From Candidatus Latescibacterota bacterium (GTDB lineage: Bacteria > Latescibacterota > UBA2968 > UBA8231): a stretch of 64,000 nucleotides of DNA. Position 1 is the first letter of the stretch, and each line of letters opens with the position of its first letter. The stretch spans positions 2,336,001 to 2,400,000 of the forward strand of contig OZ253462.1 in NCBI GenBank assembly GCA_965261395.1, written 5' to 3'. A program made the position numbers and the translations under genes. Shown here in pieces: positions 19,688 through 39,969 of this stretch. The notes under the pieces were generated by a model. The model was given only the letters and a program-made list of their open reading frames with translations, did no database searches and was not told the DNA's origin.

Positions 19688-21118
19688 TTAATTTCTGGAA
19701 AGGCTGTCCAGCAGTGTTTCCGGCAGGGCTTTTGCCAATCGGTCTGGAAAGACTGTGACGCGGTCCCCATACCGCTGGCGCAGATCGGCGATCCACGCGT
19801 CAAAGCGCTCTTTTTCCAGCGCCTTCCTCAGGGCGACCTCCGCCCTCCTGCGGGCTAGCTCAAAGGGTTCCCGCCGAAACATCTTTCCGTTTTCCTCGTA
19901 GAACCTTCGGACATCCGCCTCGTCAATGGCGATCTGGTCGATCACTTCCCGCTGTCTTATACCCCAGACCAGCAACTCCCGTCTGGTTTTCTCGACCCAC
20001 TTTATCACCTCGGGATCTTCCGGGAGGCCGAGGCGCTCGGCGGCTGCCACAAAGAGAGCGGGCTGCTGCAAAAAGCGGCGTCCGAGCAAACCGATAAAGA
20101 CGCTGTCCAGCAAGGCCCGAGGCGCTCTGATCCTGTGCTGGCGCAATACCGCCATGTAGTCCGCCAGAGAAATGGCCCCACCCTCGTAAGTGAAGAGTGG
20201 CACGCGCTCTTCTTCATCGGTCAGCTGCAACTTTCCGCTCTCTCCCAAGGCCGAGCCTTTATCCCTCAGCAGAGTCGCCCCTGCAGAGACCAGTTGCCAG
20301 TTGAATTCGCGCGCCAGAACGCCTGCTTGCTCCTCTTCGAGGGCCCGTTGCTTCTCTTCCTGCAACTGCGTCTTTATGTCCTCTCGGTGAGTCTGCAGAT
20401 CCGTGGACCGGTCTTCTAAAAAGCGGATTAGGTGATAGTTGTGGCCCCGGCGAAGAGGGGGCGATATTCGGCCGGTGCTAAGCGTGTCGAATACTTCCGC
20501 GGGGATCCCCAAGAGCCGTTCGGCAGCAGCGCGGGTGACAAACCCCAACTCGCCTTCCCGCAGGGCCGACCAAGTGTCGAGCGAATGCTTTCTGGCCAAC
20601 TCGCCGAAATCGCTCCCGGCTTCGAACTGGGCGCGGATTCGCTGCGCTTGCTCCTGAGTCCGCACTAAAATGGCGGTGACCCGGCGTTCCCGCGCCATAT
20701 CCTGCCGGTTGAAGAACTGGCGGATCTCCTCCTCGGACACTTGTATCCGGGGCAGGATCTCCTGGTCGCGATAGAGGGAGAGGAGGTGTTCTCTTCTTTT
20801 CTGGTCGAGTGTTTTGAGCAAATCGGGGTCCTGATCCAAGCCTTTTTCATAGGCCTCGAGAAGCGCGATTTCCCGGTCGACCAAAGTCTGTAGATAATCC
20901 TCCCGGGCCCGCTGTCCTTCTTCATCGCTGACCAAGCTCGGCACGAGACGGCGCACGAAGTGGCGAAGTTCCTCGACGGTGATTTCCCTAGTCCCAACTA
21001 TGGCCACAGCCGTTTTCCCGTGGTTTTGGGCGCAGGCCGTCAGCAGAACCACTATCAGTACGAGTCGCGTCCGGGGCGAGATCCAGCGCTCCGGCGCAAC
21101 AGCCAGTCCCATTTTCAC
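19688..21118 (-). CDS. Parvulin-type peptidyl-prolyl isomerase lipoprotein (PrsA/SurA-like)
   Basis: Lipobox LTAC, SurA-N-like helices, rotamase segment GSDFGELARKHSLD...GELGF...GRISPP. Confidence 0.85.
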   Translation of the reverse strand: MKMGLAVAPERWISPRTRLVLIVVLLTACAQNHGKTAVAIVGTREITVEELRHFVRRLVPSLVSDEEGQRAREDYLQTLVDREIALLEAYEKGLDQDPDLLKTLDQKRREHLLSLYRDQEILPRIQVSEEEIRQFFNRQDMARERRVTAILVRTQEQAQRIRAQFEAGSDFGELARKHSLDTWSALREGELGFVTRAAAERLLGIPAEVFDTLSTGRISPPLRRGHNYHLIRFLEDRSTDLQTHREDIKTQLQEEKQRALEEEQAGVLAREFNWQLVSAGATLLRDKGSALGESGKLQLTDEEERVPLFTYEGGAISLADYMAVLRQHRIRAPRALLDSVFIGLLGRRFLQQPALFVAAAERLGLPEDPEVIKWVEKTRRELLVWGIRQREVIDQIAIDEADVRRFYEENGKMFRREPFELARRRAEVALRKALEKERFDAWIADLRQRYGDRVTVFPDRLAKALPETLLDSLSRN

Positions 21119-21469
21119 TTCCTCGATTCAAAGTGGGTAGACAGGTGTCGAAAGAAAAGTAGGATGGGCCAATAGGTGTATCAAGATATAAGATATTTCT
21201 AGCCGAGGGTAAGAATTTGGTTGAACCCTAGGCTGAAAGTAAATATATTGGGGAGAAATTCCGCAGCTATTAGGCGTACGGCCTTTGTAACGATCATCGT
21301 AAGTATGACCTAAGTACCAGAAAATAATCAATATATATTTCTCTAGGTCGATTTCCTAAGTCCCTTCCCTTGGGGCTATTCAGGGCCCTTTAGGGAAAGT
21401 CATCTGGTCTATTTGCACTGGTGTAGCGGATGGACCATTTACCCACTTCCTCAAAGGAGTCGAAACGAG

Positions 21470-22381
21470 ATGAGATTATTTTCTTCTATCCTAGTGCTGA
21501 GCCTGGCGGTCCTGTTAGGGGCAGCGCCAGCCACGGCCGATGCGCCGGATTACTTCGCCATCCACATTCCAGCCGGAGTTGCCCAACAAATGGAGATTGA
21601 TGGGGAACTCGGCGACTGGAGTTGGTTCCCTAGTTACGCCATCATTCCCCGGGACGCGCTGCTCAGCCGCGCCGGCCCGGACGGGCTCGACTTGAATGAT
21701 TTCGACGTCACCATCTGCGTGGCGTGGACTGGCGTCGACGAGGGCAATCAACTCTGGTTCGCGATCAACACGTTCGACGACTTCTACGATCGCGACTTGC
21801 TGCGCGGCAGCCGCACGGTCGGCGACGACGGCTGGACCTTTGCTTCGGATCCCGATCACAGTGGCGGCGGAATCGATCCGGACGGGGTGTACAGCAACGG
21901 CCAGGAGTGGACGTTTCAGGCGGCCGGAGATGCGGATGTGTTTGTCCTGCAGGGCTTCAGCGACAGCTACTCTCAGTTCTGGGCCAACCAGCCGCCCCAC
22001 CTCGTCTTCGCCACTGGCCCGGCCAGCGACAAGCCGTGGAGCCACGGCGATGAAAATGTGACCATTAACTACGAATGGCGCATGACCTTGTTCTCTTTCT
22101 TCGACGCGGCCGTCTCGACCGGTGAAGGCGGAGCCGAGACCAGCACGGTCATGGATCTGACTGAGAACGCGAAGACCCACCTCATATTCCAGGGAGACGA
22201 CTGGGACGGCGGCGACAGTTGGGACGGCGCTTGGGCCACATCGAACGAGAGCGGAGCGACCGGCAACGGGGATTCCATGAATAGCTTCACCCTCATCGTC
22301 GACCCCGATGTCGAGGCCGCTGCCCCCACCGCGGTCGAGTCGACTACCTGGGCTCGCATAAAGTCCAGTCTCGCAGACTAA
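21470..22381 (+). CDS. Secreted acidic CBM9/DOMON-like protein with C-terminal TAVESTTWARIK motif
   Basis: ATG 21470 after AAAGGAG. Signal peptide ending ATA-D, EIDGELGDW, DPDHSGG, YEWRMTLF. Confidence 0.75.
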   Translation: MRLFSSILVLSLAVLLGAAPATADAPDYFAIHIPAGVAQQMEIDGELGDWSWFPSYAIIPRDALLSRAGPDGLDLNDFDVTICVAWTGVDEGNQLWFAINTFDDFYDRDLLRGSRTVGDDGWTFASDPDHSGGGIDPDGVYSNGQEWTFQAAGDADVFVLQGFSDSYSQFWANQPPHLVFATGPASDKPWSHGDENVTINYEWRMTLFSFFDAAVSTGEGGAETSTVMDLTENAKTHLIFQGDDWDGGDSWDGAWATSNESGATGNGDSMNSFTLIVDPDVEAAAPTAVESTTWARIKSSLAD

Positions 22382-22399
22382 CGGCTCATCTGTACCTAT

Positions 22400-22478
22400 C
22401 CCGGGATTCCACCCAGCGTGGGGAGTGTCTCGGGGCTCGAGTACCAGCGGTTCGGCCGGGACACCGGCTGGACCGCTG
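22400..22478 (+). promoter_or_regulatory. Two intergenic RNA hairpins (stabiliser or partial terminator)
   Basis: 15-bp stem CAGCGGTTCGGCCGG-GACA-CCGGCTGGACCGCTG (22445-22478, two G-U pairs), preceded by an imperfect CCCGGGA...TCTCGGG stem. Confidence 0.55.
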
Positions 22479-22499
22479 TATTGTATGAAAGAGTGATCT

Positions 22500-22916
22500 A
22501 TGCTGAGGTGCGCGCATTTGCTCCTGCTCGGCACGGGCATCTTTCTGTCGAGTGGCTGCGAAAAAGAGATTGATCTGTCGACTCTACCAAAGGACACCGG
22601 GGAAGGTGAGCCCAGCCGCTTCATCAAGTTCGTCAATTCCTTCCGCGGCGAGGTAGAGGTGAGTATCGCCGCCTGCTTCCAGAGATTCCGCCTCTTGTCC
22701 GACCAAATCCAATCGATCGAGTGCCTGATCGAGGAGGATGTCAATGCCTTCGACGTCGTCGTCGTGTGGCTGGATCCACCCGTTGGACAAGGGTATGCCC
22801 CGCCTCCGCCCAAGACCGTCACCGTGTCGTACGGGCAGGTCGTCGAAATCAGGAACGTCCCGGGAGGGACGGGTAGTGGCTTCATTATCCTAATCGACGG
22901 TCGTCGCCAGAACTGA
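22500..22916 (+). CDS. Small lipoprotein of unknown function, paralog 1
   Basis: Lipobox LSSGC. Shares VNSFxxExExxIAACxQ and IECL with the next gene. Confidence 0.7.
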   Translation: MLRCAHLLLLGTGIFLSSGCEKEIDLSTLPKDTGEGEPSRFIKFVNSFRGEVEVSIAACFQRFRLLSDQIQSIECLIEEDVNAFDVVVVWLDPPVGQGYAPPPPKTVTVSYGQVVEIRNVPGGTGSGFIILIDGRRQN

Positions 22917-22927
22917 ACAGAGCCGGC

Positions 22928-23329
22928 ATGGGAATACTGCGCGTATTTCTCATCCTAGCACCAGCGGCCATGCTGGGCGGCTGTGAAGAGGAGATTCCGC
23001 TCTCTACCGAGACGACCCGCGCCGGAGAAGGAGCGGTCGAACTCCGGGTCGTCAATTCGTTTATCGACGAAATGGAGATCGCTATCGCCGCCTGCCAGCA
23101 GCGCGCCCGGATCGAGGCCAAGAGCACGGCGGTGATCGAATGCCTGCTCCGAGATACCTCGACGCCATTTGAAGTGGAGATAGCTTGGCCCGGTACCCCC
23201 CTGAACGCGCAAGGTGAGTCATCCTTTCCCCCGCAGACAGCCCTTGTGGTCCCCGGCCAGATCATCCGCATTGGCATCGCACCTGAAGGGGTCGAGGGTG
23301 GATTCACAATCAAGGTTGCCGCACAGTGA
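22928..23329 (+). CDS. Small lipoprotein of unknown function, paralog 2
   Basis: Lipobox LGGC, colinear similarity to the 22500 gene, stop overlaps the next start (GTGA). Confidence 0.7.
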   Translation: MGILRVFLILAPAAMLGGCEEEIPLSTETTRAGEGAVELRVVNSFIDEMEIAIAACQQRARIEAKSTAVIECLLRDTSTPFEVEIAWPGTPLNAQGESSFPPQTALVVPGQIIRIGIAPEGVEGGFTIKVAAQ

Positions 23330-25116
23330 GTCGCGCCCGGTACATGGCTATGCCGTCTAAATCCCTCTTGCTGATTGCCCTCTTGGTCGGAGAATCCGCG
23401 GGCGCCCGGGAAGTACTGGTTTTTGGCGGCAGTGAGCGTCCGTGGCAAGCGTGGGGTACTCTGCGCGCCATCGACTTGACGAGTCGTCCGGGTTGGCTAC
23501 AGCCCGAGCGCATATCGCCCGACGAAAATCTCAGCTTGAGAGCTCTAGCCGAAGGTGGCAATATCGATAGCCCGCAGCCTTCGGTCCAAGGTCTGGCCGA
23601 TCCCCAGACCGGCTTGGGGGCGCTGATCGACGGAGAAATCGCCACGATTTTTCCCATTGAGCACTCTAGACAGATAGGGGGGCGCATCATTCTGGATCTG
23701 GGCCGGGTTTTCAGTGGTGTCTATCAAATTTCGTTCTATCCTCGCATTGAGCAGGGAGACCGATTTCTGCGGGGATACGAACTGTACGTCAGCGACGAAA
23801 GCGACCCGTTGCGGGGCGATCCAGTCTGGGATTTGGCGGCCCGAACGACCCGCAACGAACGCGAAGTGGTCACAGTCGACATCGCGCCCCGCTATGTCCG
23901 GTGGGCCATGCTGATATTCACAAGTCCCCTGCCTTGGGAAATCGCCGAGTTAGAAGTCTATGGCCAGGGCTTTGCACCGCGGGCGGTGTACACGTCCAAC
24001 GTCATCGATTTAGGCGGCCTAGCCACCCTGGGAACGCTGACTTGGGCAGCCCAGACCAATACGGGGGGCGCTGTTCAAGTCAGCACCCGCAGTGGCTCCA
24101 CAGCCGATCCCTATCTCTACTACCGGCGTCGGGGGGCTACGCTCGAAGAAGTGGGGAAAGACCAGTACGACAACCTGAGGGAAAACCAACGGGTAAAACG
24201 GCCCGATCTGGCAAACTGGAGCCCCTGGTCGCCACTGCACACAACGAGTGGTTCGCGCATCCGCTCGCCAGCACCTCGGCGCTATTTCCAGTTTGCCGTC
24301 GAATTGGTCAGCGATCGCTTTGCAGCGGCAGCTCAGGTGGATTCGCTCGCCTTTGAAATTTCCTCTCCGCCACCAGCCCACGAAGTAGTGGCCGAAATCG
24401 AGCCGCAATTCGTCGTCGCCGGGGAGACAACGCCCTTTACCTACCATGTGCGACCGCGCATCCTAGATGACGATGCGGGCTTTGATGCCGTGGAATTGTC
24501 CACTCCGACCTTGGCTCGTTTGAGGGAGCTGACTATAGGCGGTACACCAATAGAAGACTTTACCTGGGAAGCGACGGATTCCCTACTGACGGTGCGCTTT
24601 CCGAATCATCCCGTCGTAAAAGACGGGGTACTGGTAGAATTGAAATTCGATGCAAAGGTGATCGAATTCGGTACCCTTTTTTCTTCCCGAGTGTTCGCCA
24701 GCCAGTCCACTGAACTAGCCCAAGATGTCCTGCCCGGCGATGCCAGCATCGAACTCAATACCAATCACTTTTCGGTCGAGTTGGAATTGGACAATACCAT
24801 TCTGGGCGACTTGGCCATTGTGCCCAACCCCTTTACACCCAACGGCGACTCGCTCAACGACCGGATGCGCATTCAGTACAGCATATTCAAACTCGTCCAA
24901 CCCGTATCCGTCGAGGCGGCTATATACGACCTTGCGGGGAGGCGAGTTCGGGCGCTTTTCAATGGCTTGCAAAGCAGCGGTTTTCACGCGGTGGAGTGGG
25001 ACGGTAGAGAGGGCCAGGGCTCCTTAGCCGCACCAGGGTTGTACATATGTCGCATAAGCGTAGATTCGGCCACGGGGGCCAACGAAAGGGCCGTACCTGT
25101 GGCTCTGGTCTACTGA
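23326..25116 (+). CDS. Secreted discoidin-like protein with C-terminal FTPNGD/FlgD-Ig domain (type A)
   Basis: Signal peptide, WEIAELEVYG, SNVIDLG, NWSPWS, SPAPRRYFQF, PNPFTPNGD..ND, IYDLAGRRV, WDGR, PGLY; ends LVY. Confidence 0.8.
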   Translation: MSRARYMAMPSKSLLLIALLVGESAGAREVLVFGGSERPWQAWGTLRAIDLTSRPGWLQPERISPDENLSLRALAEGGNIDSPQPSVQGLADPQTGLGALIDGEIATIFPIEHSRQIGGRIILDLGRVFSGVYQISFYPRIEQGDRFLRGYELYVSDESDPLRGDPVWDLAARTTRNEREVVTVDIAPRYVRWAMLIFTSPLPWEIAELEVYGQGFAPRAVYTSNVIDLGGLATLGTLTWAAQTNTGGAVQVSTRSGSTADPYLYYRRRGATLEEVGKDQYDNLRENQRVKRPDLANWSPWSPLHTTSGSRIRSPAPRRYFQFAVELVSDRFAAAAQVDSLAFEISSPPPAHEVVAEIEPQFVVAGETTPFTYHVRPRILDDDAGFDAVELSTPTLARLRELTIGGTPIEDFTWEATDSLLTVRFPNHPVVKDGVLVELKFDAKVIEFGTLFSSRVFASQSTELAQDVLPGDASIELNTNHFSVELELDNTILGDLAIVPNPFTPNGDSLNDRMRIQYSIFKLVQPVSVEAAIYDLAGRRVRALFNGLQSSGFHAVEWDGREGQGSLAAPGLYICRISVDSATGANERAVPVALVY

Positions 25117-25128
25117 GAGGACGAGAAC

Positions 25129-27525
25129 GTGGACATGGGCACGGGGCGCGCCAGCAGAAAAGCAACTTCAACTGTTTTGTACCGCACAGCGAAGATACTC
25201 GTCGTTTGCGCCGGCCTTTTCCTCCTCAGGCCTTGGAGTGCGCCGGCTGGTGAAATCCGCTTCAGCCGCTCGTCGCAGTGGCGCGAGTGGAGCGCACCCG
25301 AGGGGACCATCGCGATTTCGCCGGACGGCCGAGTCAGCCCGGTCTTCATCCGCAAATCGATCAACGCGGCGCTCAATGCCGGCCAGTTCGCAGTACTGGG
25401 CGACTTCGGGGACGAAGAAGAGCGCTTGGGCGGCATAAGTGGGGCTGGCACGAATCCCGGAATGGCCGGTCTCATTCTCGACGGCGACGAGGAGACGTTT
25501 TGGACCCCTGCCGTCGGCGCTGCTCTCGACGACTGGTGGGTGGAAGTGGATCTGGGTCGGGCAGTCTCCGCCACGGAGATCGCGGTAAAATTCGCTCGCT
25601 CGGGCAATCCTTTCAGCATGTTCCAAGTCTTCGTCTCTACGGGCGAGGAAGCAGTCTATTTCGGCTCCGGACTTAAGAAATACAGCCTATTGGCCGAGAC
25701 GACCCGTCCCAATACTAGGTACGAACTCACTTATCCGCTCTTGCCGCAGGACGTGAAATTGAGCGGTCGAGGCGAGCTGACCTTTAGGCAGTTCGTGCGC
25801 TTTGTTTTGTTCCGGGCCTTGCGCACAGCCGAGAATCCGCGCTTGGCCGAAATCGAGGTCAGAGCCTTGGGCGACAATATCGTCTTGGGCAGCGAGCAAC
25901 GGGGTGGCGGCGCTCTCATCGCACCGGCCGGAGGCGACGAAAGCGAGCCACCGACCTTTGCTTCGGATATCATAGACGGGAATTACAATACGGGCTGGAA
26001 TTCCCTGGGAAATTTCGTCGGCGACCCCAAGCGGTGGGGGTGGGTCAATATAGACCTGGGAACCCTATTCTGGGTAGACCATGTGCGCATCGTCACGTCT
26101 TTCGGGTTCACCGGTAAGCGCAATGTTCCGGTCTTCGGGTACAAACTCTTTGCCTCGGACGGGACGCGCAGCAGCGGCGCAGGCGCGGGCGAGTTTGTCG
26201 ATTTCGACGACCTAGTCTGGGAGGAGATTGCCGAACTCGAAGACAATCCCGCTCCCGAGCGCTTCATCTTTGAAGAGCACCTGACCCCGCGCAAGGTGCG
26301 CTACCTGTTCTGGTCGAATCGCAACCAGCGGGGCACGGGCGTTTCAACCGTGCGGGAGATCCAGGCTTTTGGGGAGGGTTTCATTCCGGGCGTCACCTTA
26401 ACCTCCGGCTTGATAGATCTGGGCGGTGCCAAAAATCTGACGGCCATCCACTGGAGCGGAGAAACGCCGCCGGCCACTAGACTGGCGGTGCGCACGCGCA
26501 CGGGCAATGAGCTAGGCGAGAAACGGCACTACTTCGACAAGGAGGGCAATGAATACACCGAAAAGGCTTGGGAGAAGCTGCCGCCCTTCAAACGCCAGAA
26601 AGAGCCCACCGTCGAACTCATCCCGGGCGCGGGATGGAGTCCGTGGAGTCTGCCCTACGAGTATTCGGGCGCTCGCTTTCAATCGCCCAGCCCCCGCAGC
26701 TATGCCCAGATACAAGTGGAGTTGATCAGCGATGATCCGCAGCGGGCTCCGGCCTTGTCCAGTGTGGCGCTCGAATTCACGGACCCAGCGGCCGAACAGA
26801 TCATCGCCGAAATCGTCCCCCGGATAGCTACACCGGGACAGACGGAAGAATTCTCCTATTTCATCCTCCCTAGTTTCGGGTCTGGGAATCGCGGTTTTGA
26901 CCAGATTTTGATTCGCGTTCCGACCGATCCTGTCTTTCGGGGCCTGAAACTAGACCACGAGGAAATAGATCCCGTTGCCGTGCGGGCCGCGGCGGACTCA
27001 CTGGTCGTCACCCTGCCGACTGCGGTGCAGTCGACGCAACTGATCGAGGTGAATTTCGCCACTCAAGTCTTCCTCAATGCCACCCTCTTTGAGGGTTTTG
27101 TACGGCGCTCGGCTGAGCCGGACTCTTGGCAACAGATTGATCCGGGCGATGCGAGCCCGGACGCTCTAGGCGACGATCTGAGAGTTTTCCTACCGGCCAG
27201 TAGCAGCGGTCTCCAAACCCCGACAATCAATCCATCGGTGATCACCCCGAACGGAGATGAGCGCAACGAACAGTTGACTGTGCGCTTTGCGCTGGTCGGC
27301 TTGGAGGCGTCCCGCCAACTCCGGGCCGCCGTGTACGATCTGGGTGGTCGACTGGTCGCCCGGCTGCGCGACCAGTCCGGGTCTAGCGGGGAGTACGCCC
27401 TTTTGTGGGATGGCCGCGATGGGGCGGGAAATATGGTGCCCCCTGGGGTGTACCTGTTCCGCCTGAGCATCGACAGCGATAAGCCGACGAGGGCGTTTAC
27501 GCGACTCGTCGGGGTAGCCTACTGA
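25129..27525 (+). CDS. Secreted discoidin-like protein with C-terminal FlgD-Ig domain (type B)
   Basis: WREWSAPEG, WWVEVDLGR, RLAEIEV, TRTGNEL, WSPWS.PY, SPSPR, ITPNGD, YDLGGRLV, WDGRD; ends VAY. Confidence 0.8.
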   Translation: MDMGTGRASRKATSTVLYRTAKILVVCAGLFLLRPWSAPAGEIRFSRSSQWREWSAPEGTIAISPDGRVSPVFIRKSINAALNAGQFAVLGDFGDEEERLGGISGAGTNPGMAGLILDGDEETFWTPAVGAALDDWWVEVDLGRAVSATEIAVKFARSGNPFSMFQVFVSTGEEAVYFGSGLKKYSLLAETTRPNTRYELTYPLLPQDVKLSGRGELTFRQFVRFVLFRALRTAENPRLAEIEVRALGDNIVLGSEQRGGGALIAPAGGDESEPPTFASDIIDGNYNTGWNSLGNFVGDPKRWGWVNIDLGTLFWVDHVRIVTSFGFTGKRNVPVFGYKLFASDGTRSSGAGAGEFVDFDDLVWEEIAELEDNPAPERFIFEEHLTPRKVRYLFWSNRNQRGTGVSTVREIQAFGEGFIPGVTLTSGLIDLGGAKNLTAIHWSGETPPATRLAVRTRTGNELGEKRHYFDKEGNEYTEKAWEKLPPFKRQKEPTVELIPGAGWSPWSLPYEYSGARFQSPSPRSYAQIQVELISDDPQRAPALSSVALEFTDPAAEQIIAEIVPRIATPGQTEEFSYFILPSFGSGNRGFDQILIRVPTDPVFRGLKLDHEEIDPVAVRAAADSLVVTLPTAVQSTQLIEVNFATQVFLNATLFEGFVRRSAEPDSWQQIDPGDASPDALGDDLRVFLPASSSGLQTPTINPSVITPNGDERNEQLTVRFALVGLEASRQLRAAVYDLGGRLVARLRDQSGSSGEYALLWDGRDGAGNMVPPGVYLFRLSIDSDKPTRAFTRLVGVAY

Positions 27526-27536
27526 GGCGATTTTCC

Positions 27537-30137
27537 GTGACCTACTGCAAATACATCGCAATCACAGTGGCCTTGCTCGCGGCCGTGCCGCCACCGAGCC
27601 AGGCGCAGGCCCTGAACCCGACGGGAGCCCAGACCTTTTTTGCGGCCATTGATCCCACCATCCAGAAGTGGTATCGCCCCCAGCAACTCTACGCCGAGTA
27701 CAAGTGGGACTGGTGGCAGTATTCCAATTATGCCAGAGTCCCCTACCAGCGCTACGTGGATACCGAACTGGAGGGCACCCGCTGGTACGATCTCTACGGG
27801 AACTACGTGACCGAGGGGTGGCAGATCTACCGCTGGACCCAGGAGCAGCCCACGACCTTTGGGAGCGACATCCTCAAGAGCCGCCGCTTCAATTCTTGGT
27901 TCAACAGGCTAGTCGTGACCCAGGTCCAAAGGGGCCAGTACTACTTTGCCGTGACGGTCGGCGATGAGATCCGCACGGCCCTGACCCCTTTTACTTTTTC
28001 CAAACCGGCCTTCAATGGGGTCCAGGTCGATCTCCAGTCGGACAAATACGCGGCGACCTTGCTCATGTCCCGGGTCAACCTGCCCATAGCGCTCGAAGGG
28101 GGGGAGGTAAACGAATCGAAGATCACCGACTTCAACAATCTGCTCGGCTTCAGGACGACGGTGCAGATAGGGGATTTCGTCCAAATGGGCGGCACGTATG
28201 TCAATGCCCATCTGGGGCGGACCTCGCCGGATTTGAGTCTGGCCGGGATCCGCGCGGGGAACTTGACGACCGAGCAGAATCGAGATGTCATCCGCCAAGT
28301 GCAAATTCGCATCAGCGACGATTCGCCGGAAGACGGCAAGGGTGGAGCCATCCTCTTTTCCGAGCGCGTTTTTGCCAATGCGGACACCGAACCCCTCGCT
28401 ATTGTCCCCCTAGTCGAAGGCGGTACTCCGCGCCGCGGGGCCTTGGTCGCCGACGGAGCCGAGCAGATCGTCCTGACCTACGCGTTCACCCAGCCCGAAT
28501 TGATCCGCAAGCTAGTCTTTGAACTGGTATTGGCCAATGACTACTTGGTGGAGGTGACTTCCAACCTACAGACCGATTTCTCGGACCAACCCGTGTACCT
28601 GCCCATGGCCAAGTCCGCGCGGAATGTTCAAGACGGCTCCAACCAGCGCCTCGTCCGCTTTGACTACGGCTTGCCGACGGCCAACGAAATCTATGGTATG
28701 ACGCTCGAAGTCCAAGATGTTGCCGGACTCGACATCTTGGCTGAGTGGAATAACAACAATCAGTGGCGCCGCCTGCCCAATGTGAATTTCGAAAGGCATG
28801 TGCGGGCCGCGAACACCGCCCAGGTCGGATACCTGACCGCGCGCACCACGAGTCGGTACTATCCGTGGTTCGCGTACGGCGAAATTTTCAGTGTGGACCA
28901 GGACTACTCCACGTCCATGTACATCCAGGATCAGCAGGGCAAGCTCGACTACACCAACAAACTGCGCGGCGTGTACGAATTTGTCGACGACAACGACGAC
29001 CAAGATCGCTTCCCCGACTGGCGCCGGGCCCAGCAACCCAACGAAAGTCAGCGCCGATCCATCTCCGGCGGACCTAGAGGCGGGATATTCCCCGGCCTGG
29101 ACGAGAACAACGATTTTATCTCGGATTTCAACCAAAACGATAACACCCGGCCCGATTACGACGAACCCTTCCTCCGCTATACCGTGGACCCGCCCGAATT
29201 CCTCTTTGGCATCGATATGGACAACAACACCCTAATCGATCGCTTTGAGGACGATAACGAGGCCGACTACCCGTTTCAACGGGACCACCGCGGGTACAAC
29301 GGATACTTGGGCCTCAATATTTTCCCCGAGGTCCAGCTGCTAGGGGGCTATTCAAACCAGTGGCTGCTGTCGGCCGACCGCCGTAGTCGCTCATCCTATC
29401 TGCTCTTCAAAATGCAGCAGGACCGGGTTGCGTTGGGCAAATTCCGCTTTTTCTACCAGCTCAAGTTCGTCGAGGACAACATCATCGACGACCAGTTGTT
29501 TTGGACGCAGCCGCCGGGTACGTTCGGCGTGAGCGAATTTCCCTTTGAAGATCCCATGCTGGCCCAAGACGCGGTCGTCAACTCGGTTTTTATCGGTTTC
29601 GACCAAGCTTGGGGCCGTTTCAATACGTCGGCCAAGGTCAAATACGAGGGCCTCGTTCAGCGCGGCGACAATGTCGCCCGGCTCACCCGGCCTGGGGAAG
29701 AACCGGAGATCATCGACGACTCTCATTTCCTCGGCCTAATCCACAAACTCGACTACTCTTTTCAGCTCACTGATGCGCTGGTATTCCACCCCAAATTGAA
29801 GAGCATGTACCGGCGCCAGACCGCCTATCTGGAAAGTGCGGGCAAAAAAAACAACCTGTCCGAGATCCTCTTTCTAACGCTGGCGGTGCAGTTGATGCCC
29901 AATCTCGAGCTGGAAGGTGGTACGGAATTGACCAAATTCTGGGATTTGGCCGACCAACCTGGGGCGCGGCTCGATTTTTGGGGTTGGGTCGGCGCGCTGC
30001 AGCTATCCGTCACCCAGGCGTATCTTGGATATCAGGTGACGATAAACCTGGGGACGCAAGTGCAGCAGCAGCGTTTTGAGGACCGGGAACAGAACCGCGT
30101 CGAATCGTTCCTCGTCATATTTGCCGGACTGGATTGA
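27537..30137 (+). CDS. 866-aa secreted, putative outer-membrane protein with acidic Ca-binding-like repeats
   Basis: Signal peptide ending AQA. DDNDDQDRFPD, DENNDFISDFNQNDN, DMDNNTLIDRFEDD. C-terminal third is made of amphipathic beta-strands. Confidence 0.7.
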   Translation: MTYCKYIAITVALLAAVPPPSQAQALNPTGAQTFFAAIDPTIQKWYRPQQLYAEYKWDWWQYSNYARVPYQRYVDTELEGTRWYDLYGNYVTEGWQIYRWTQEQPTTFGSDILKSRRFNSWFNRLVVTQVQRGQYYFAVTVGDEIRTALTPFTFSKPAFNGVQVDLQSDKYAATLLMSRVNLPIALEGGEVNESKITDFNNLLGFRTTVQIGDFVQMGGTYVNAHLGRTSPDLSLAGIRAGNLTTEQNRDVIRQVQIRISDDSPEDGKGGAILFSERVFANADTEPLAIVPLVEGGTPRRGALVADGAEQIVLTYAFTQPELIRKLVFELVLANDYLVEVTSNLQTDFSDQPVYLPMAKSARNVQDGSNQRLVRFDYGLPTANEIYGMTLEVQDVAGLDILAEWNNNNQWRRLPNVNFERHVRAANTAQVGYLTARTTSRYYPWFAYGEIFSVDQDYSTSMYIQDQQGKLDYTNKLRGVYEFVDDNDDQDRFPDWRRAQQPNESQRRSISGGPRGGIFPGLDENNDFISDFNQNDNTRPDYDEPFLRYTVDPPEFLFGIDMDNNTLIDRFEDDNEADYPFQRDHRGYNGYLGLNIFPEVQLLGGYSNQWLLSADRRSRSSYLLFKMQQDRVALGKFRFFYQLKFVEDNIIDDQLFWTQPPGTFGVSEFPFEDPMLAQDAVVNSVFIGFDQAWGRFNTSAKVKYEGLVQRGDNVARLTRPGEEPEIIDDSHFLGLIHKLDYSFQLTDALVFHPKLKSMYRRQTAYLESAGKKNNLSEILFLTLAVQLMPNLELEGGTELTKFWDLADQPGARLDFWGWVGALQLSVTQAYLGYQVTINLGTQVQQQRFEDREQNRVESFLVIFAGLD

Positions 30138-32005
30138 TGGCCAGAAGACGTAATGTTGCCCCGTCCCTTGGCGCTTTGCACGGGACAGTTTTACTCCTCG
30201 TCCTAGTCTGCTGGGCACGGGCCGTAGCCGTGGAGCACTGGACCGTCGGCGGACAGGCACACCCCTGGAATACTGTCGGCACCCTAGCGCTGTTGAGCGA
30301 CGCGCAGAGTTCCGGCTGGCTAGAGCCGCTCGAAGTGTCGGGCGAGAACCTCGCCCTCAACCTGCGACAGTTGGACTCGGCGCGGGTGCTGACCAATTAC
30401 ACTTGGCGAAAATTCGAGAGCCTGAAAAATGTAGTGGACGGGGATCGCTTGAGCGGCTGGCCTCCCATCGAACTCGATATCGTCAATACGCGCGAGAACA
30501 ACCCCTTTTTCGCCGTCGTCCTAGTCGTCGATTTGGGGGCACCCTTCGGTGTGGACCGCATTGGTTTCTCAGCGGTAGAGGGACTTGAGTTCCGCTTTAT
30601 CGAAGGGTTCCAGGTTTTTATCCAAGACGGCAAAGAGCCTGTCGCCTTTCCCCAAAGTCAGAGGAACTGGCACTGGTTTGTGCGCGATTGGGAGCTGGTT
30701 GCTGAGGTGGAGCAGACCGAGGGAAGCACAGCGCATATCGAAATACCGCCGCGCTTGGTGCGCTATGTGGCTCTCTCCGATACGATCAGCTTGCCTAGTG
30801 CCCGTCTCTGGCAACTCGGCGAGGTGGAGGTCTGGGGCAGGGGGTATGCCTCCTCAGCCACCTTTACATCCGACATCATCGACTTTGGCGAGCCGGTCGT
30901 TTTGGGGGCTATGACCTGGGATGCGGTGGACGATCCCGGCAGTACCCTGCAGATTCGCACGCGGAGCGGCTCGACGCCCGATCCGAATGTCTACCTCAGC
31001 TTTACGGGCATAGGACAAAACGGCCAACAGGCCGTATCGCGCAGCGCATACGAGGCTCTGCACCCCAAGGCGAGGGGGCCTATTGTGGCCGATACGAAAA
31101 ATTGGACTCCGTGGTCCGCGCCCTATCCGTCCACCGGGAGGGAATCCTTGGTTGCCCCCAAACCTGCGCGCTATTTCCAGTTTGAGATCGACTTTGCAAG
31201 CGCTCTGCCGCTGTCGCGCTCCCGCATCGATTCTCTCTCGGTCGAGTTTTCTCCGCCCTTGGTCGAGCAGGTCGAAGGCGAGATTTGGCCTGCGCTCGTC
31301 TCCCCGGGCGAACTCGTGCGCTTCACCTATGCGCTGAGGCCGCGCGTGGCTCCCGGAGATCCCGGTTTCGACGGGGTGGAGATTGCCACACCTACCGCTG
31401 CGGTGGTGCAAGAGGTGAGGATCGCTGGCATAGGCTTGGACGATTTTGTGGCCGAGGTGGAGGAAAACCGTCTGCGCGTCTCTTTTTCCGGGCGATTGAT
31501 CGACCGGGATGCTATCCTAGTCGAAGTCGATTTCGACTGCCGCGTCTTTGTTGCGGGCACGCGTTTTGCGGGCCGAGTTTTCAACAGCAAACGCGACGAG
31601 ATGCCCCAGCCAATTGTTCCCGGCGATGTGCACATTGACCTCAATTCAGAGGATCTGCTTGTCGGGTTTGCCCCGGAAGAGCAGGGCAAGTTGCTGGCTG
31701 AGGTGGAGATCCACCCCAGTCCCTTTACGCCCAACGGGGATGGCGTGAATGATTGGGCGGAGTTCACCTATAACCTGTTTCAGGCCACGGTACCCGTTCC
31801 CGTTGAAATCGCCGTCCACGACCTCTCCGGTCGCCTCGTCTGGCACCAGGCAATGTCCCAGTCCAGCGGTTTCGGTCGCGTATTCTGGGATGGTAGGGAT
31901 GGGTCTGGGCAACTAGTAGCGCCGGGGGTGTACATCTACCGGGTTTCAATGGACGCCGCCGTCGGCGCGCAGGTCCGCGTCGGTGCGGTGGCAGTAGCAT
32001 ACTAG
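30137..32005 (+). CDS. Secreted discoidin-like protein with C-terminal FlgD-Ig domain (type A)
   Basis: ATG overlaps the previous TGA. WQLGEVEVWG, SDIIDFG, NWTPWSAPY, PSPFTPNGDGVND, WDGRD; ends VAY. Confidence 0.8.
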   Translation: MARRRNVAPSLGALHGTVLLLVLVCWARAVAVEHWTVGGQAHPWNTVGTLALLSDAQSSGWLEPLEVSGENLALNLRQLDSARVLTNYTWRKFESLKNVVDGDRLSGWPPIELDIVNTRENNPFFAVVLVVDLGAPFGVDRIGFSAVEGLEFRFIEGFQVFIQDGKEPVAFPQSQRNWHWFVRDWELVAEVEQTEGSTAHIEIPPRLVRYVALSDTISLPSARLWQLGEVEVWGRGYASSATFTSDIIDFGEPVVLGAMTWDAVDDPGSTLQIRTRSGSTPDPNVYLSFTGIGQNGQQAVSRSAYEALHPKARGPIVADTKNWTPWSAPYPSTGRESLVAPKPARYFQFEIDFASALPLSRSRIDSLSVEFSPPLVEQVEGEIWPALVSPGELVRFTYALRPRVAPGDPGFDGVEIATPTAAVVQEVRIAGIGLDDFVAEVEENRLRVSFSGRLIDRDAILVEVDFDCRVFVAGTRFAGRVFNSKRDEMPQPIVPGDVHIDLNSEDLLVGFAPEEQGKLLAEVEIHPSPFTPNGDGVNDWAEFTYNLFQATVPVPVEIAVHDLSGRLVWHQAMSQSSGFGRVFWDGRDGSGQLVAPGVYIYRVSMDAAVGAQVRVGAVAVAY

Positions 32006-32014
32006 GAGAAGGTA

Positions 32015-32782
32015 TTGCCGATGTGCGCTTCAGTTCCTTTTGGCTACAGACGGGGAGTGTGTATTCTCGTTCTAACTCTCGGTCTCTCTAGCTGCAAGTA
32101 CGGCTATCAATATTACGCCGATCCACTGCGACCTCTCGATGAAGAGGGCCAAGCTGCCGGTATGATCGTCAGCGACGATGGGACGGTCACCTATGTGGCC
32201 GATCGGCTGGAGATAGCTGTGCGACCGTTTTCCGACCGCGAACTGAACAGGCTGTTTCCGGCTCAATCCCTCCAGGGCACGGAATCGACCAACCCCTATA
32301 CCTTTGGCAATTGGCGCGATCCCTCCACGGGCACGACGCCCCGGCGCTTTACCGTCTTCCAGCTCAAAGTCAAGAACTATCAGTACCCGAAACTCCTGAT
32401 TGATCCGGCAAAGAGTGCCATCATCAGCGATAACGGTCGCCGCTACCCAGCTTTGAGCCAGACCGATATGGAAGAATACTACCGCAAGTACATCACCGGT
32501 TATGTCGGCCAACTCTACACCACTTTCCAGGGCCGGAAGGATCTGCTGAGCAGAACGCTGTACCCCGGCGGTGTGGTCTTCAGCGGGCAGGAGACCGAAG
32601 GCTTCATCACCTTTGCCGACCTCCACCCAGAGGTCCGCAGGGTGCGCCTGCGCCTCGGCGATATCGCCCTGCGTTTTAACTTTCGCGATGAGCCGATCGA
32701 AACGATCGATATTGAGTACTCCTTTGACCGCGAGATTGGCTATTACTACCCCCGCAGAGAGCGGGAGCCCATTAAAAACTGA
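32015..32782 (+). CDS. Lipoprotein of unknown function
   Basis: AGGAG RBS, lipobox LSSC, STNPYTFGNW, FTVFQLKVKNYQYPK. Start may be ATG 32021. Confidence 0.75.
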   Translation: MPMCASVPFGYRRGVCILVLTLGLSSCKYGYQYYADPLRPLDEEGQAAGMIVSDDGTVTYVADRLEIAVRPFSDRELNRLFPAQSLQGTESTNPYTFGNWRDPSTGTTPRRFTVFQLKVKNYQYPKLLIDPAKSAIISDNGRRYPALSQTDMEEYYRKYITGYVGQLYTTFQGRKDLLSRTLYPGGVVFSGQETEGFITFADLHPEVRRVRLRLGDIALRFNFRDEPIETIDIEYSFDREIGYYYPRREREPIKN

Positions 32783-32792
32783 GGTCCATGCG

Positions 32793-34754
32793 ATGAGCCA
32801 GCAGCCGGTGCCTCGGGATTCCGAACCGCCAACTGCATCCTCCGGTCTGAGTTACAAGGCATTTTTTTGGGGCTGCGTCCTCTCCCTATGCGCCGCGATT
32901 GGCGCGCTGCACTCGACCTTTATCAACGCCTCGTGGATGGCCCTCAATATCAGCGTGCCCATCGCCTTCTTCGTCTTTGCGCTCTTCGCGGGGCTGGTCA
33001 ATCCCCTCCTCGGTCTGGTCCACCGACGGCTGATGCTGCGACGTGCCGAGTTGGGAAGCGTCTTCATCATGGCGATGATGGCGGCCACCGTGCCGACGGA
33101 GGGCTATGTTGAGCACATGGTGCCCAAAATCGCCAGTGTGTTCTACTACGCCACGCCCGAGAACGACTGGGTGGACCTGATCCACCCGTATATGAAGGGG
33201 TGGTTCGCGCCGCTGGATGGTGAGGCCGTGCAGCACTTTTTCGAGGGGTCGCCAGCCGGGGTGCCCATTCCGTGGGGGGCGTGGATACAACCGCTGTGCG
33301 GCTGGGCGCTGTTCTTTTTGACCTTGTGCTTCGTGATGGTGTGTACGATGGTCATTCTGCGGCGGCAGTGGATCGACCACGAGCGCTTGGTGTATCCGCT
33401 GGTGAAGCTGCCCCTGGAGATGATTGAGGAGGACGGCTCGCTGATGCGGCCGTTTTTCCGCAATCCCGTCATGTGGCTGGGGTTCTCTATCCCGTTCGCG
33501 TTGCTGAGTCTCGACGCCCTGCACAGCTATTACAATTTCATCCCCGCGATAGTCCTCGACACCAGTATTCCCGTATTCCGCGACCTAGTGAGCCTGCGCC
33601 TCGCCCTCAGCTTTATGACCTTGGGGTTTGCCTATTTCGTCAACCTACAAGTGCTCCTGAGCATCTGGGTTTTTTTTCTGCTGACCACCGCCCAACAGGG
33701 CCTCTTCAGCGTCTTGGGCATCGCCATGAGAGAGCGACTGACCGGGTACGCCACTTCGGAAGCGATTGCAGCCCACGAGGGCATGGGTGCCCTGATTGCC
33801 TTTGTGCTCTTCAGTCTGTGGGTGGGACGGGATCATTTGCGGGCCGTGTGCCGCAAAGCTTTTCTGGGGGACGCAGCAGTGGACGACTCTGGAGAGATGC
33901 TCTCCTATCGCACCGCGGTGTTCGGGACGATTATCGGCTTGGCTATCCTGGGCGCGTGGCTGATCTTGTCGGGGCTGCCGGGTTGGTTGGTGCCCTGGTT
34001 TCTGTTCGTGGTCTTCGTTCTATTCGTGGGGTTGAGCCGCTTTGTGGCCGAGGCGGGCTTGGCGACCATCCGGGCACCGATTTACCCACAGGCCTTTATG
34101 ACCTCCACGGTGGGAACCACGGCCATCGGCGCGGAGGGCTTGGCAGCGCTGGGCATGACGTACGCGTGGATTTTGAAGGTGCGCATCTTCGCCATGGCCG
34201 CGTGCGCCAACGCGCTAAAACTCGACGGGGAACTCCACGCGCGAGGGGGCGGACCGCGGCTGTTCTGGGCGATTGTATGGGCGGTGGTCATCAGTCTGGT
34301 TGGCTCGACCTGGTACCTCCTCCACCAAGCCTATACCTACGGCGGCATCAACCTGAACCAGTACTTTTTCGTGGGGTCGCAAACGCCCTTCGAGGATATA
34401 GCGGGGTGGATCGCCAACCCGATGGCGGTGAACTGGGAGGGATGGTTTTACGTGGCATTGGGCGGTGGGGTCATGGTGTTGCTGATGCTGGCGCGGCACT
34501 ACTTTTTGTGGTGGCCGCTGCATCCGGTCGGCTTGCCCATTGCCACGACTTGGGTTACGAACCAGATCTGGGTGAGCGTCTTCCTGGTGTGGCTCTTCAA
34601 GAGCGTGGTGTTGAAATACGGGGGGCCTAGATTGTACAGGCGGATTCAGCCATTTTTTTTGGGATTGGTTTTGGGTAATGTGGCTGCGGGCGGCGCGTGG
34701 TTTCTAATTGATAGTTCGACGGGCATGCAGGGAAATATCCTGGTCTATTTCTGA
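32793..34754 (+). CDS. Polytopic membrane protein (DUF6785/DUF6784-like putative transporter), paralog 1
   Basis: Likely ATG 32793, 653 aa, many TM segments. RRQWxxHERLVYPL, RFVAEAGL, WWPLHPVG, KYGGxxLY..PFFLGL. Family name is recalled, not searched. Confidence 0.8.
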   Translation: MSQQPVPRDSEPPTASSGLSYKAFFWGCVLSLCAAIGALHSTFINASWMALNISVPIAFFVFALFAGLVNPLLGLVHRRLMLRRAELGSVFIMAMMAATVPTEGYVEHMVPKIASVFYYATPENDWVDLIHPYMKGWFAPLDGEAVQHFFEGSPAGVPIPWGAWIQPLCGWALFFLTLCFVMVCTMVILRRQWIDHERLVYPLVKLPLEMIEEDGSLMRPFFRNPVMWLGFSIPFALLSLDALHSYYNFIPAIVLDTSIPVFRDLVSLRLALSFMTLGFAYFVNLQVLLSIWVFFLLTTAQQGLFSVLGIAMRERLTGYATSEAIAAHEGMGALIAFVLFSLWVGRDHLRAVCRKAFLGDAAVDDSGEMLSYRTAVFGTIIGLAILGAWLILSGLPGWLVPWFLFVVFVLFVGLSRFVAEAGLATIRAPIYPQAFMTSTVGTTAIGAEGLAALGMTYAWILKVRIFAMAACANALKLDGELHARGGGPRLFWAIVWAVVISLVGSTWYLLHQAYTYGGINLNQYFFVGSQTPFEDIAGWIANPMAVNWEGWFYVALGGGVMVLLMLARHYFLWWPLHPVGLPIATTWVTNQIWVSVFLVWLFKSVVLKYGGPRLYRRIQPFFLGLVLGNVAAGGAWFLIDSSTGMQGNILVYF

Positions 34755-34759
34755 GCGAG

Positions 34760-35692
34760 GTGAATATGCACTACCGAAAATTGGGCAGGACTGAACTAAG
34801 GGTCTCCGAAATCGGCTATGGCACCAATATGCTGGGCCGGCGGGAACTGACCGAATCCGAGCACATCGCCATGGTGCATCGGGCCATGGAACTGGGCATC
34901 AATTGCGTCGATACAGCGGACGTGTACCAGGAAGGGAGGAGCGAGATCATGCTGGGGAAAGCGCTGAAGGGACGCCGCGACCAGATGATTCTGGCCACCA
35001 AGGTCGGCAGTGTTATCCCCAGAGAGGGACGGGATATTTCTCCGGGGCATATTGAAAAGGCTGTAGAGGCGAGTTTGCGCCGGTTGCAGACGGATTATAT
35101 CGATGTGTACCAACTGCACAGTCCACAGCTTCATCATCTGCAGGAGAACAATTGGCTGGAGGCCATGCAGAGCCTGAAGGAACAGGGCAAGATTCGCTAC
35201 TGGGGGGCTAGTGTCAACCACATCGACGCTGGTGTCTGGCTGCTGGAACAGGACCTAATCGACTCGCTGCAGCCCACCTTCCACATGCTCTACCACGATA
35301 TGGCGGACGCTATGTTCGGGCTGGCGACCGAGCGGGATGTGGGCGTCGTGGTCAAACAGGGTCTGGCCCGGGGCTTGGTGAGCGGCAAGTATGCGGCCGA
35401 CCACGCCTTCACGGGAAGTGGCTGGCACGAACAAGGGGCGGTGGTGGACGCCCAGGTCATTTTGCGGAAAGTGGAAGAACTCCGGTTTCTCGAGCGGGCG
35501 GGGCGCAGCCAAGCTCAGGCCGCCCTCCAGTACCTCCTGAGTTATCCAGTGGTGTCGACCATCATCGCCGGGGCCAAGCGCGTAGAGCAGTTGGAAATGA
35601 ACGCCGGAGCGTCCAATGGAATGGGACTGGCGGGGGAGGAACTGGAACGGGTGAAGGCCATTTTAGGACGGGACGGCGATCAGACTTGGTGA
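34760..35692 (+). CDS. Aldo/keto reductase
   Basis: YRKLGRTELRVSEIGYG, DTADVY, ATKVG, SLRRLQTDYIDVYQLH. Confidence 0.93.
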   Translation: MNMHYRKLGRTELRVSEIGYGTNMLGRRELTESEHIAMVHRAMELGINCVDTADVYQEGRSEIMLGKALKGRRDQMILATKVGSVIPREGRDISPGHIEKAVEASLRRLQTDYIDVYQLHSPQLHHLQENNWLEAMQSLKEQGKIRYWGASVNHIDAGVWLLEQDLIDSLQPTFHMLYHDMADAMFGLATERDVGVVVKQGLARGLVSGKYAADHAFTGSGWHEQGAVVDAQVILRKVEELRFLERAGRSQAQAALQYLLSYPVVSTIIAGAKRVEQLEMNAGASNGMGLAGEELERVKAILGRDGDQTW

Positions 35693-39888: not shown

Positions 39889-39969
39889 CCCTAGTCTATA
39901 TATAGGGGAGGACAAGCCGCTTTTCGCTCCCTTGCGGGTCACAGAGCGAATTTCCTCATAGAGTCCAAG

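Follow-up and report, generated by a model that had tools for sequence, protein, structure and literature searches.

What does a tightly packed operon of envelope proteins do when none of its products matches a TonB-dependent receptor, an ATP-binding cassette (ABC) ATPase or a known secretion core? The question is raised by a locus in a 64,000-nucleotide stretch of DNA (the window), positions 2336001-2400000 of the single-contig 6.55-Mb chromosome of a Candidatus Latescibacterota bacterium. Its ten-gene operon centers on an 866-residue protein that is predicted to be a giant outer-membrane beta-barrel, together with surface proteins of two types (A and B), small lipoproteins, a CBM9-like protein (cbm), an inner-membrane permease and, on the opposite strand, a peptidyl-prolyl isomerase (PPIase). 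An earlier note on this DNA, written from the letters alone, described the locus as an uptake or secretion system resembling a polysaccharide utilization locus (PUL). One part of the answer is settled by linkage data: the locus is one copy of a cassette, with a core and accessories, that forms a conserved multi-copy functional unit. This cassette may capture and take up food by a mode not yet studied. The features of the locus, in window coordinates, are as follows.

19688-21118, minus strand: PPIase lipoprotein, parvulin-type (SurA/PrsA/EpsD-like), with Rotamase domains and lipobox LLTAC; divergent from the operon
21119-21469, no strand: AT-rich divergent intergenic region, 351 bp, 43% GC; probable promoter region of the operon
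21470-22381, plus strand: cbm, CBM9-like secreted protein with C-terminal tag TAVE-x3-(S/T)W(G/A)xIK; no Pfam or NCBIfam match
22445-22478, plus strand: hairpin between cbm and lip1, 15 pairs, GC-rich
22500-22916, plus strand: lip1, small lipoprotein, lipobox LSSGC; no family match
22928-23329, plus strand: lip2, small lipoprotein and lip1 paralogue, lipobox MLGGC; no Pfam or NCBIfam match
23326-25116, plus strand: A1, predicted surface protein with a C-terminal domain like that of type B cargo in type IX secretion systems (T9SS); FlgD_ig, CHU_C, TPNGD
25129-27525, plus strand: B, predicted surface protein that has a discoidin (F5/8 type C) domain and ends in a type-B-like tail; F5_F8_type_C, FlgD_ig, CHU_C
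27537-30137, plus strand: predicted giant outer-membrane beta-barrel, 866 residues, candidate new family and core of the cassette; signal peptide, AlphaFold2 model
30134-32005, plus strand: A2, predicted surface protein with a T9SS type-B-like tail; CHU_C, FlgD_ig, TPNGDG motif
32015-32782, plus strand: lip3, lipoprotein and cassette accessory, lipobox LSSC; no family match
32793-34754, plus strand: inner-membrane permease, DUF6785 and DUF6784 by Pfam, OPT/Yellow-Stripe fold predicted by the structure model
34760-35692, plus strand: aldo/keto reductase (AKR; Aldo_ket_red, 1.9e-55), the last co-directional gene; not a conserved cassette member
35680-36759, minus strand: enolase-superfamily sugar-acid dehydratase (MR_MLE_C, 1.2e-52), convergent; not a conserved cassette member

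A cassette repeated in the genome and the phylum

Genes of the whole chromosome were called by a simple codon score (4,929 calls) and assigned to families by BLAST against the proteins of the locus. The number of copies per genome, which the earlier note proposed counting, is 46 barrel genes in 32 loci; the same labels give 85 A and 62 B genes (147 in all), 30 PPIases, 57 permeases, 15 lip3 genes and 71 enolase-type genes. The A, B, barrel and PPIase genes together take up 509 kb, or 7.8% of the chromosome. An A or B gene lies within 3 genes of every one of the 46 barrels, and the gene just upstream on the same strand is an A gene in 16 cases, a B gene in 15 and another barrel in 9 (40 of 46). 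The core of a cassette consists of a barrel some 870-1000 residues long and between one and three A and B proteins, which are paralogues of one another.

Linkage was scored as the presence of a family within 8 genes of the 32 barrel loci, compared with 2000 random placements. A is found at 29 loci, B at 30, PPIase at 24 (random mean 3.3), cbm at 15, lip3 at 11 (random mean 1.7) and permease at 16 (random mean 5.2), and not one random placement matched the observed count for any of these six families. PPIase, the CBM9-like protein, lip3 and the permease are thus statistically linked accessories of the cassette. Three other families show no enrichment around the barrels: enolase-type genes (2 loci, random mean 6.5), AKRs (4, random mean 3.2) and other proteins with secretion-type C-terminal domains, or CTDs (1, random mean 4.0). 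Enolase-type genes and AKRs are also at chance level around the 57 permeases, so that the AKR and the dehydratase, which the earlier note took to be enzymes fed by the permease, are rejected as members of the system. Further recurrent neighbors of the barrels are FG-GAP/ASPIC (CRTAC1-type) proteins, TPR proteins and PMT_2-TPR membrane proteins.

The same set of genes recurs outside this genome. A scan of metagenomes with the barrel alignment yields 80 loci at 39-47% barrel identity. Among the 49 of these that are at least 12 kb long, A or B accompanies the barrel in 46, B in 40, PPIase in 26, lip3 in 22, cbm in 16 and permease in 12, while an AKR occurs in 1 and an enolase-type gene in 2. Across 121 sampled genomes of the phylum, the barrel is present in 71 (E <=1e-10) and the B family in 62 (E <=1e-40); 61 genomes have both, 10 the barrel only, 49 neither, and the single genome with B only is 75% complete. 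Barrel and B are distributed alike by family as well (40/40 genomes in family f1, 0/29 in f2 and 0/13 in f3), but since the phylum genomes are related and not independent, this distribution is a pattern rather than a test. Closer to home, gene order is the same in all four related chromosomes compared, which are labeled as Candidatus Latescibacterota or Latescibacteria metagenome-assembled genomes, with protein identities of 88-99%. The barrel (96-98%) and the permease (95-99%) are best conserved among them, and A2, lip2 and PPIase are more variable (88-92%). Co-occurrence of the components, on which the earlier note had staked its proposal in advance, holds within the genome, in the metagenome loci and across the phylum.

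The operon itself (21470-35692) has all ten genes in one direction. From cbm to lip1 the gap is 118 bp, and the remaining spacings, in order, are 11, -4, 12, 11, -4, 9, 10 and 5 bp. Open reading frames and family scans bear out the gene list, order and tight spacing given in the earlier note, together with the divergent PPIase across an AT-rich region of about 350 bp, whose GC content of 43% compares with about 57-60% in the adjoining 2-kb windows. The reading frame of the CBM9-like protein opens at 21413, with the likely ATG at 21470 and AAAGGAG in front of it at 21454-21460; that of the permease opens at 32571, with a likely start at 32793 that gives a 653-residue protein. The hairpin after cbm, with G-C in 11 of its 15 pairs and no T-run after the stem, could from its sequence be an attenuator or stabilizer. 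As the earlier note had said, no TonB-dependent receptor, ABC ATPase or secretion-core family is recognizable in any of the 12 locus proteins (Pfam, NCBIfam). The CBM9-like protein, lip1, lip2, the 866-residue protein and lip3 have no match at all in these two databases, and lip1, lip3, the N-terminal part of A1 and three sub-segments of the barrel, searched against Pfam at E up to 5, give nothing usable.

RNA libraries account for 14 of the 19 listed sequencing runs that hold part of the stretch. Contigs from four metatranscriptomic runs of two studies, taken at >=95% identity, cover 21279-32276 and bridge the junctions cbm/lip1/lip2 (in 3 runs), A1/B and barrel/A2 (2 runs each), and lip2/A1, B/barrel and A2/lip3 (1 run each). 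The first contig begins at 21279-21331 in all four runs, within the AT-rich region and just downstream of a promoter-like TTGAAC-17-TATATT at 21221-21249, matches of this kind being no commoner than in shuffled sequence; the contig starts are a weak hint of a transcription start. The contig from cbm to lip2 exceeds its neighbors 5- to 50-fold in word depth, but contig depth cannot rank genes and is not used. Some RNA runs labeled as sponge metagenomes hold 12-17% of the sampled words, from which we draw no habitat claim.

The giant barrel and the A and B proteins

The 866-residue protein is acidic (isoelectric point 4.76; 112 D+E against 80 K+R) and beta-rich. Its AlphaFold2 model, from a 64-sequence alignment, has a pLDDT of 83.7 and a pTM of 0.83, and the DSSP string of the model shows about 24 long strands whose connections alternate between short (2-7 residues) and long. 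Two large insertions fall within the long-connection set: residues 229-370, a beta-rich domain, and residues 454-583, an Asp/Asn-rich stretch that holds the best-conserved columns of the family. Because the usual rule for outer-membrane barrels puts long connections outside, the long connections, both insertions included, would be extracellular loops.

Comparison of the model with solved structures returns barrels of a generic kind. Foldseek finds only large barrels at TM-scores <=0.35 and root-mean-square deviations (rmsd) >17, with LptD, MtrB and the FimD/PapC ushers among the neighbors, and the wide VIA structure search again gives generic barrels only (Z up to 14.2, rmsd 5.8-12.7). Across both searches the neighbors are SlpA, MtrB, LptD, ushers, TonB-dependent transporters and Omp85 proteins; the Foldseek likeness to TonB-dependent transporters is generic too (TM 0.14-0.30), and neither a plug domain nor a TonB-receptor domain is found in the barrel. 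Nor does it match PorP_SprF, PorV or PorQ in Pfam or NCBIfam. HMMER run against 1.84 billion cluster representatives finds 650 relatives at E <=0.001, 161 of them at <=1e-30. Among the relatives listed by a word-index search, none has a precomputed Pfam domain and every source name is "hypothetical protein"; most are from Latescibacteria, with single records labeled Gemmatimonadetes, Handelsmanbacteria and Firmicutes. A confident model without a family match or a specific structural match agrees with the novel barrel of the earlier note, and we take the protein to represent a new family of predicted outer-membrane barrels, one with no counterpart in Pfam, NCBIfam or the solved structures searched. 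Full-text searches, whose scope was papers other than those available by subscription only, found no published description of this barrel family or of the cassette. The passages seen of PMC8163846 make no mention of such loci, and a passage of PMC4454575 predicts non-specific porins for passage across the outer membrane.

Two candidate relationships of the barrel were rejected. An Atlas lead to DUF6029 scored 0.89, below the level that counts, and a profile comparison with the DUF5916 protein encoded elsewhere in the window gave a probability of 0.06%. This DUF5916 protein (6637-8934, minus strand, 765 residues) is probably another outer-membrane barrel. It opens with an IDGxLDD..W stretch resembling one in the CBM9-like protein, and comparison of the CBM9-like protein with its N-terminus is not significant (E 0.068). 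Divergent paralogues of the giant barrel itself (26-36% identity) occur in another context in loci L163 (chromosome 5299992-5319991), L154 and L158, with TPR/YfiO-like proteins of 1040-1095 residues and DUF4159 proteins; L163 also has ExbB-ExbD-ExbD genes and a small PorV/PorP-like barrel.

The A and B proteins share their C-terminal domains. A1 matches FlgD_ig above its cut-off (35.5 bits) and CHU_C below it (22.7 bits), with no Pfam family in its first 475 residues. A2 reaches 29 bits for CHU_C (cut-off 27) and 25.5 bits for FlgD_ig. B combines a discoidin domain (F5_F8_type_C, 2.4e-10) with FlgD_ig (33.3 bits) and CHU_C (26 bits), and in its family of 31 members CHU_C is found in 30 (E <=0.01), F5_F8_type_C in 28 and FlgD_ig in 25. 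Sequence searches of the PDB with B, the permease and cbm return only the FlgD Ig domain, for B. CHU_C is the Pfam model of the T9SS type B signal; the TIGR04131 model has 89 matches in the genome, 8 of them above its cut-off. Because the CHU_C scores straddle their cut-off and so few TIGR04131 matches exceed theirs, the A/B tail appears to be related to the type B signal but diverged from it. The motif [ST]PN[GN]D is carried by 131 proteins within their last 120 residues. These comprise 75 of the 85 A and 56 of the 62 B proteins and nothing else: the motif is missing from all 50 other CTD proteins and from the 4,732 gene calls outside both the A/B and the CTD-only groups. Since this motif is confined to them, A and B form a family with a tail class of its own.

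The secretion system that such a tail would address is present. The genome matches the models of PorU (618 bits, above cut-off) and SprA (474 bits). Of the 121 phylum genomes, 116 have SprA, all those of families f2 and f3 among them; the secretion system is therefore general in the phylum, and the cassette an add-on in part of it. The earlier note gave an account without any link to T9SS, and here it has to be amended: the A/B tail, SprA and PorU place T9SS cargo logic beside that of the PUL.

Small barrels of the PorV/PorP kind have a distribution of their own. The PorP_SprF model finds matches in 29 of the 121 genomes, 25 of 29 in family f2 and none of 40 in f1; a six-frame search of the cassette's own genome with PF11751 (PorP_SprF) found no match, in a search in which no control genome answered either. 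By BLAST the genome has about 8 small PorV/PorP-like barrels, one beside PorU and one flanked by two divergent giant barrels. Three genomes of other families that carry the cassette have a small barrel gene within it, at a distance of 90 bp to 1.1 kb from a giant barrel gene. These in-cassette barrels score 48-91 bits for the PorV/PorQ family (cut-off 90) and exceed the Pfam cut-off of PorP_SprF. Small PorV/PorP-family barrels occur in 3 of the 80 metagenome loci. With small and giant barrels in one cassette, the giant barrel is not simply a stand-in for PorP. Where both occur, one may speculate that the small barrel is the shuttle and the giant barrel the destination.

One further neighborhood in the window (51843-57928, minus strand) has a B-type gene (875 residues) and an A-type gene (705 residues) without a giant barrel, beside a major-facilitator-superfamily transporter. 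Two proteins without a family match (49805-50983 and 51006-51827) belong to the same neighborhood.

Permease, accessories and neighboring genes

Proteins of the OPT family couple the import of oligopeptides and metal chelates to protons. The permease of the locus belongs by Pfam to the unstudied DUF6785/DUF6784 family (7.8e-119 and 5.8e-30), and its model, from a 51-sequence alignment, has a pLDDT of 88.6 and a pTM of 0.90. Barley YS1 (7wst) is the sole clear Foldseek match (E 8.2e-9, TM 0.66/0.71; next TM near 0.1), so that the predicted fold is that of the OPT (Yellow-Stripe) family. The likeness to YS1 (PDB 7wst/7wsr) lies in the overall fold, at 11-12% sequence identity; the permease has no match to Pfam OPT (PF03169), and among 120 listed homologues one has a precomputed PF03169 match. 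Recurrent neighbors of the permeases are PhyH oxygenases, sulfatases, GFO/IDH/MocA oxidoreductases, FG-GAP/ASPIC proteins, CBM9-like proteins and a giant M28-like/FtsX protein. The last of these (1468-2124 residues, an M28-like domain with FtsX/MacB-type modules) is encoded by 7 genes at most 4 genes from a permease, mostly just downstream, for example in locus L130 (chromosome 1806295-1811304). The best NCBIfam match of the enolase-family gene that follows the operon is galactonate dehydratase (1.2e-48, below cut-off).

The window has a second DUF6785/DUF6784 permease (43123-45090), 74% identical to the first, which is preceded within 39016-45090 by an FGE-sulfatase-type gene, an NRAMP-type transporter and an FG-GAP/ASPIC protein; a further FG-GAP/ASPIC gene lies at 36780-39002 (minus strand).

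The PPIase matches Rotamase_2 (7.3e-11, 43.4 bits) and Rotamase (1.5e-10, 42.3 bits) above their cut-offs, and SurA_N_3 (19.9 bits) and an EpsD-type model (8.4e-20) below theirs. In the Atlas clusters nearest to the CBM9-like protein, CBM9_1 is found in 13%, 37% and 94% of members, and its family in the genome numbers 17 by BLAST label or 30 by clustering. The tag that it carries, TAVE-x3-(S/T)W(G/A)xIK, is found in 53 proteins of the genome, with 53 of its 57 occurrences in the last 15 residues; no transmembrane helix lies behind it and no NCBIfam model matches it. From sequence, it may be an unrecognized sorting or docking signal. The tag is followed by 3-15 residues, and it marks, besides the CBM9-like family, families of 140-190 and about 300 residues; tagged proteins are also encoded in the window at 45225-45794 and 47501-48061 (both minus strand). 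The sole relative of lip1 in the genome is lip2, which makes lip1 specific to this locus.

PMT_2 (GT-C-like) membrane proteins with TPR directly follow the barrel in several loci (e.g. L017, chromosome 539506-541797), with 11 of these genes no more than 8 genes away from a barrel; they could serve periplasmic glycosylation of cassette proteins. Elsewhere in the window, a lone C-terminal specificity domain of a Type ISP restriction enzyme (3601-5711, 330 residues), beside a DDE transposase, looks like a disrupted defense gene. Four Peripla_BP_6 genes, three of them clustered, are found in 11219-16607 and 58989-60164, along with a sigma-54 activator without a receiver domain (12816-13760).

Capture, anchoring or export

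Bacteroidota PULs pair SusC/SusD with surface glycan-binding proteins. The cassette is like them in its many paralogous loci per genome and in joining a barrel to carbohydrate-binding-type surface proteins and, in half of its loci, to an inner-membrane importer. It is unlike them in that its binders appear to be T9SS cargo rather than lipoproteins, and in that its loci have very few glycoside hydrolases or lyases. SusD-type families have no match among the locus proteins (Pfam, NCBIfam), and Plug and TonB_dep_Rec domains of the SusC type are absent from all 12, the genome's 20 TonB-receptor matches lying elsewhere; no hybrid two-component or extracytoplasmic-function-type regulator is seen in this locus, and no carbohydrate-active enzyme (CAZyme). 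The PUL comparison of the earlier note therefore stands for copy number and logic and fails for content, which is CAZyme-poor.

The closest known logic is that of T9SS type B cargo with PorP/SprF, as in the pairs SprB-SprF of Flavobacterium johnsoniae and PG1035-PorP of Porphyromonas gingivalis. Cargo with a tail that appears related to type B, an adjacent outer-membrane barrel gene, SprA and PorU are common to both, as is one tail class per barrel family. The partner in the cassette, by contrast, is 866-1060 residues long, with about 24 predicted strands and roughly three times the size of PorP, and stands outside the PorP/SprF family; the cassette is found in Latescibacterota and the known systems in Bacteroidota. 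There are 46 barrels and 147 cargo genes here, compared with 12 type B substrates in F. johnsoniae, and an OPT-fold importer and a PPIase are linked, with small PorV/PorP barrels additional in some cassettes.

We favor, at a little short of an even chance, a surface capture complex in which T9SS-delivered binders sit on the giant barrel and feed uptake. A and B would leave the cell through SprA and be held at the surface on or beside the barrel encoded with them, for which the insertions 229-370 and 454-583 could be the dock. The PPIase would aid periplasmic folding of the barrel or of the cargo; of the dedicated foldase proposed in the earlier note, the linkage (24 of 32 loci) is observed and the folding role is conjecture. 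A bound ligand or a fragment of it (candidates are a glycan, a glycopeptide or a small sulfated compound) would then cross the barrel without TonB (neither a plug nor a TonB-receptor domain is found), and in about half of the loci a proton-driven OPT-fold permease would import it. The inner-membrane transporter of the earlier note is supported by the enrichment of the DUF6785 permease, present at 16 of 32 loci, and by its predicted importer fold, the other half of the loci having none nearby. What suggests an uptake role is that importer-fold permeases are enriched threefold, that the barrel is so large, that domains of carbohydrate-binding type (discoidin, CBM9-like) are present and that the loci have multiplied as in PULs. 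A TonB-dependent system is rejected for want of a plug or receptor domain in the locus, and an ABC-driven one for want of an ATPase. We would advance only tentatively, as doubtful in its full form, a more ambitious version: a TonB-independent uptake machine that is the functional counterpart of the SusC/SusD utilisome, built from unrelated parts, in which T9SS lectin-like proteins are docked by their private tail on a barrel of about 24 strands, calcium-binding-type extracellular loops gate oligomers to the OPT-fold importer, and some 30 specificities per genome make up the main feeding apparatus of Latescibacterota.

Several observations weigh against uptake. More than a third of the cargo (57 of 147 A/B genes) has no barrel within 5 genes, 41 of the 57 permeases are away from barrel loci, and half of the barrel loci have no permease within 8 genes. 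The 10 kb on either side of the 32 loci hold 117 gene calls that have at least 100 codons and belong to neither the cassette nor the recurrent families, and just three of these are of CAZyme type: a GH2-like gene, a PL4-like lyase and a GDSL esterase. The others are scattered among sugar-acid enzymes, parts of ABC and SSF transporters, LRR and Recep_L proteins and mobile elements. Given the small PorV/PorP-family barrels inside some cassettes, cargo may be handled by ordinary shuttles. The RNA libraries may hold DNA, their contigs show neither strand nor level, and a contig that spans two genes does not establish one transcript. That the barrel conducts substrate, and that A and B touch it, we infer.

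A rival that accounts equally well for the strict pairing of cargo with barrel, and for the private tail, is an anchoring or adhesion module without transport, in which the barrel would do for its T9SS cargo what SprF does for SprB, as a cognate anchor or destination in the outer membrane and no more, and many divergent copies would give a varied adhesive coat, e.g. for host matrix or particles. Cargo with a private type-B-like tail always stands beside the barrel, and in Bacteroidota, according to PMC9143113 and PMC12618676, the genes of type B cargo are often found linked with those of cognate PorP/SprF proteins of the outer membrane, which bind the cargo or shuttle it. Surface and structural proteins (FG-GAP/ASPIC, TPR, LRR, Recep_L) predominate in the loci, with few enzymes, and between orthologous loci the barrel varies less than A2, lip2 and PPIase (96-98% against 88-92%), as expected for exposed binders on a fixed base. 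We nevertheless judge anchoring alone possible rather than likely: barrel loci have the OPT-fold importer three times as often as expected at random (16 of 32 against 5.2), a barrel of 866 residues and about 24 strands far exceeds the PorP/SprF anchors of about 300 residues, and where small PorV/PorP-family barrels are present the job of anchor or shuttle may already be filled.

An export or assembly device, with the barrel as pore or usher for A/B or a polymer, the PPIase as periplasmic chaperone and the tail as a targeting tag only, is improbable. It could draw on the translocating barrels (LptD, MtrB, FimD/PapC ushers) among the Foldseek neighbors, on the EpsD-type model of exopolysaccharide/exosortase loci as best match of the PPIase, and on the GT-C-like PMT_2-TPR proteins that adjoin barrels; yet those structural matches are all generic by both searches, the genome has a full T9SS translocon and sortase, with SprA nearly phylum-wide, the linked inner-membrane protein has the predicted fold of an importer, and polysaccharide synthase and Wza/Wzc-type genes are not seen in the loci. 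That the whole cassette is a chance neighborhood of expanded families in a gene-dense genome, and no functional unit, can be set aside with near certainty. The families are indeed very large (147 A/B, 57 permeases, 71 enolase-type genes), and chance adjacency does occur and explains the AKR and enolase genes here. It does not produce linkage of A, B, PPIase, cbm, lip3 and permease that 2000 random placements fail to match, the same set in 46 of 49 long metagenome loci at 39-47% barrel identity, matching phyletic patterns of barrel and B, or intergenic spacings of -4 to 12 bp.

Latescibacterota are a widespread, uncultured phylum within the FCB (Fibrobacteres, Chlorobi and Bacteroidetes) group, and gene lists are the only source of what is known about how they feed. 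Should the giant barrel prove to be a channel, the cassette would stand beside the SusC/SusD of Bacteroidota as a second and independent answer to the same problem, and would be a marker of substrate use in metagenomes. Should it be an anchor, the cargo-sorting logic of T9SS would hold outside Bacteroidota too, with a partner family that is new and much larger. In both cases the barrel, the A and B proteins, lip3 and the tagged CBM9-like proteins gain a context, and the DUF6785 importers gain one more.

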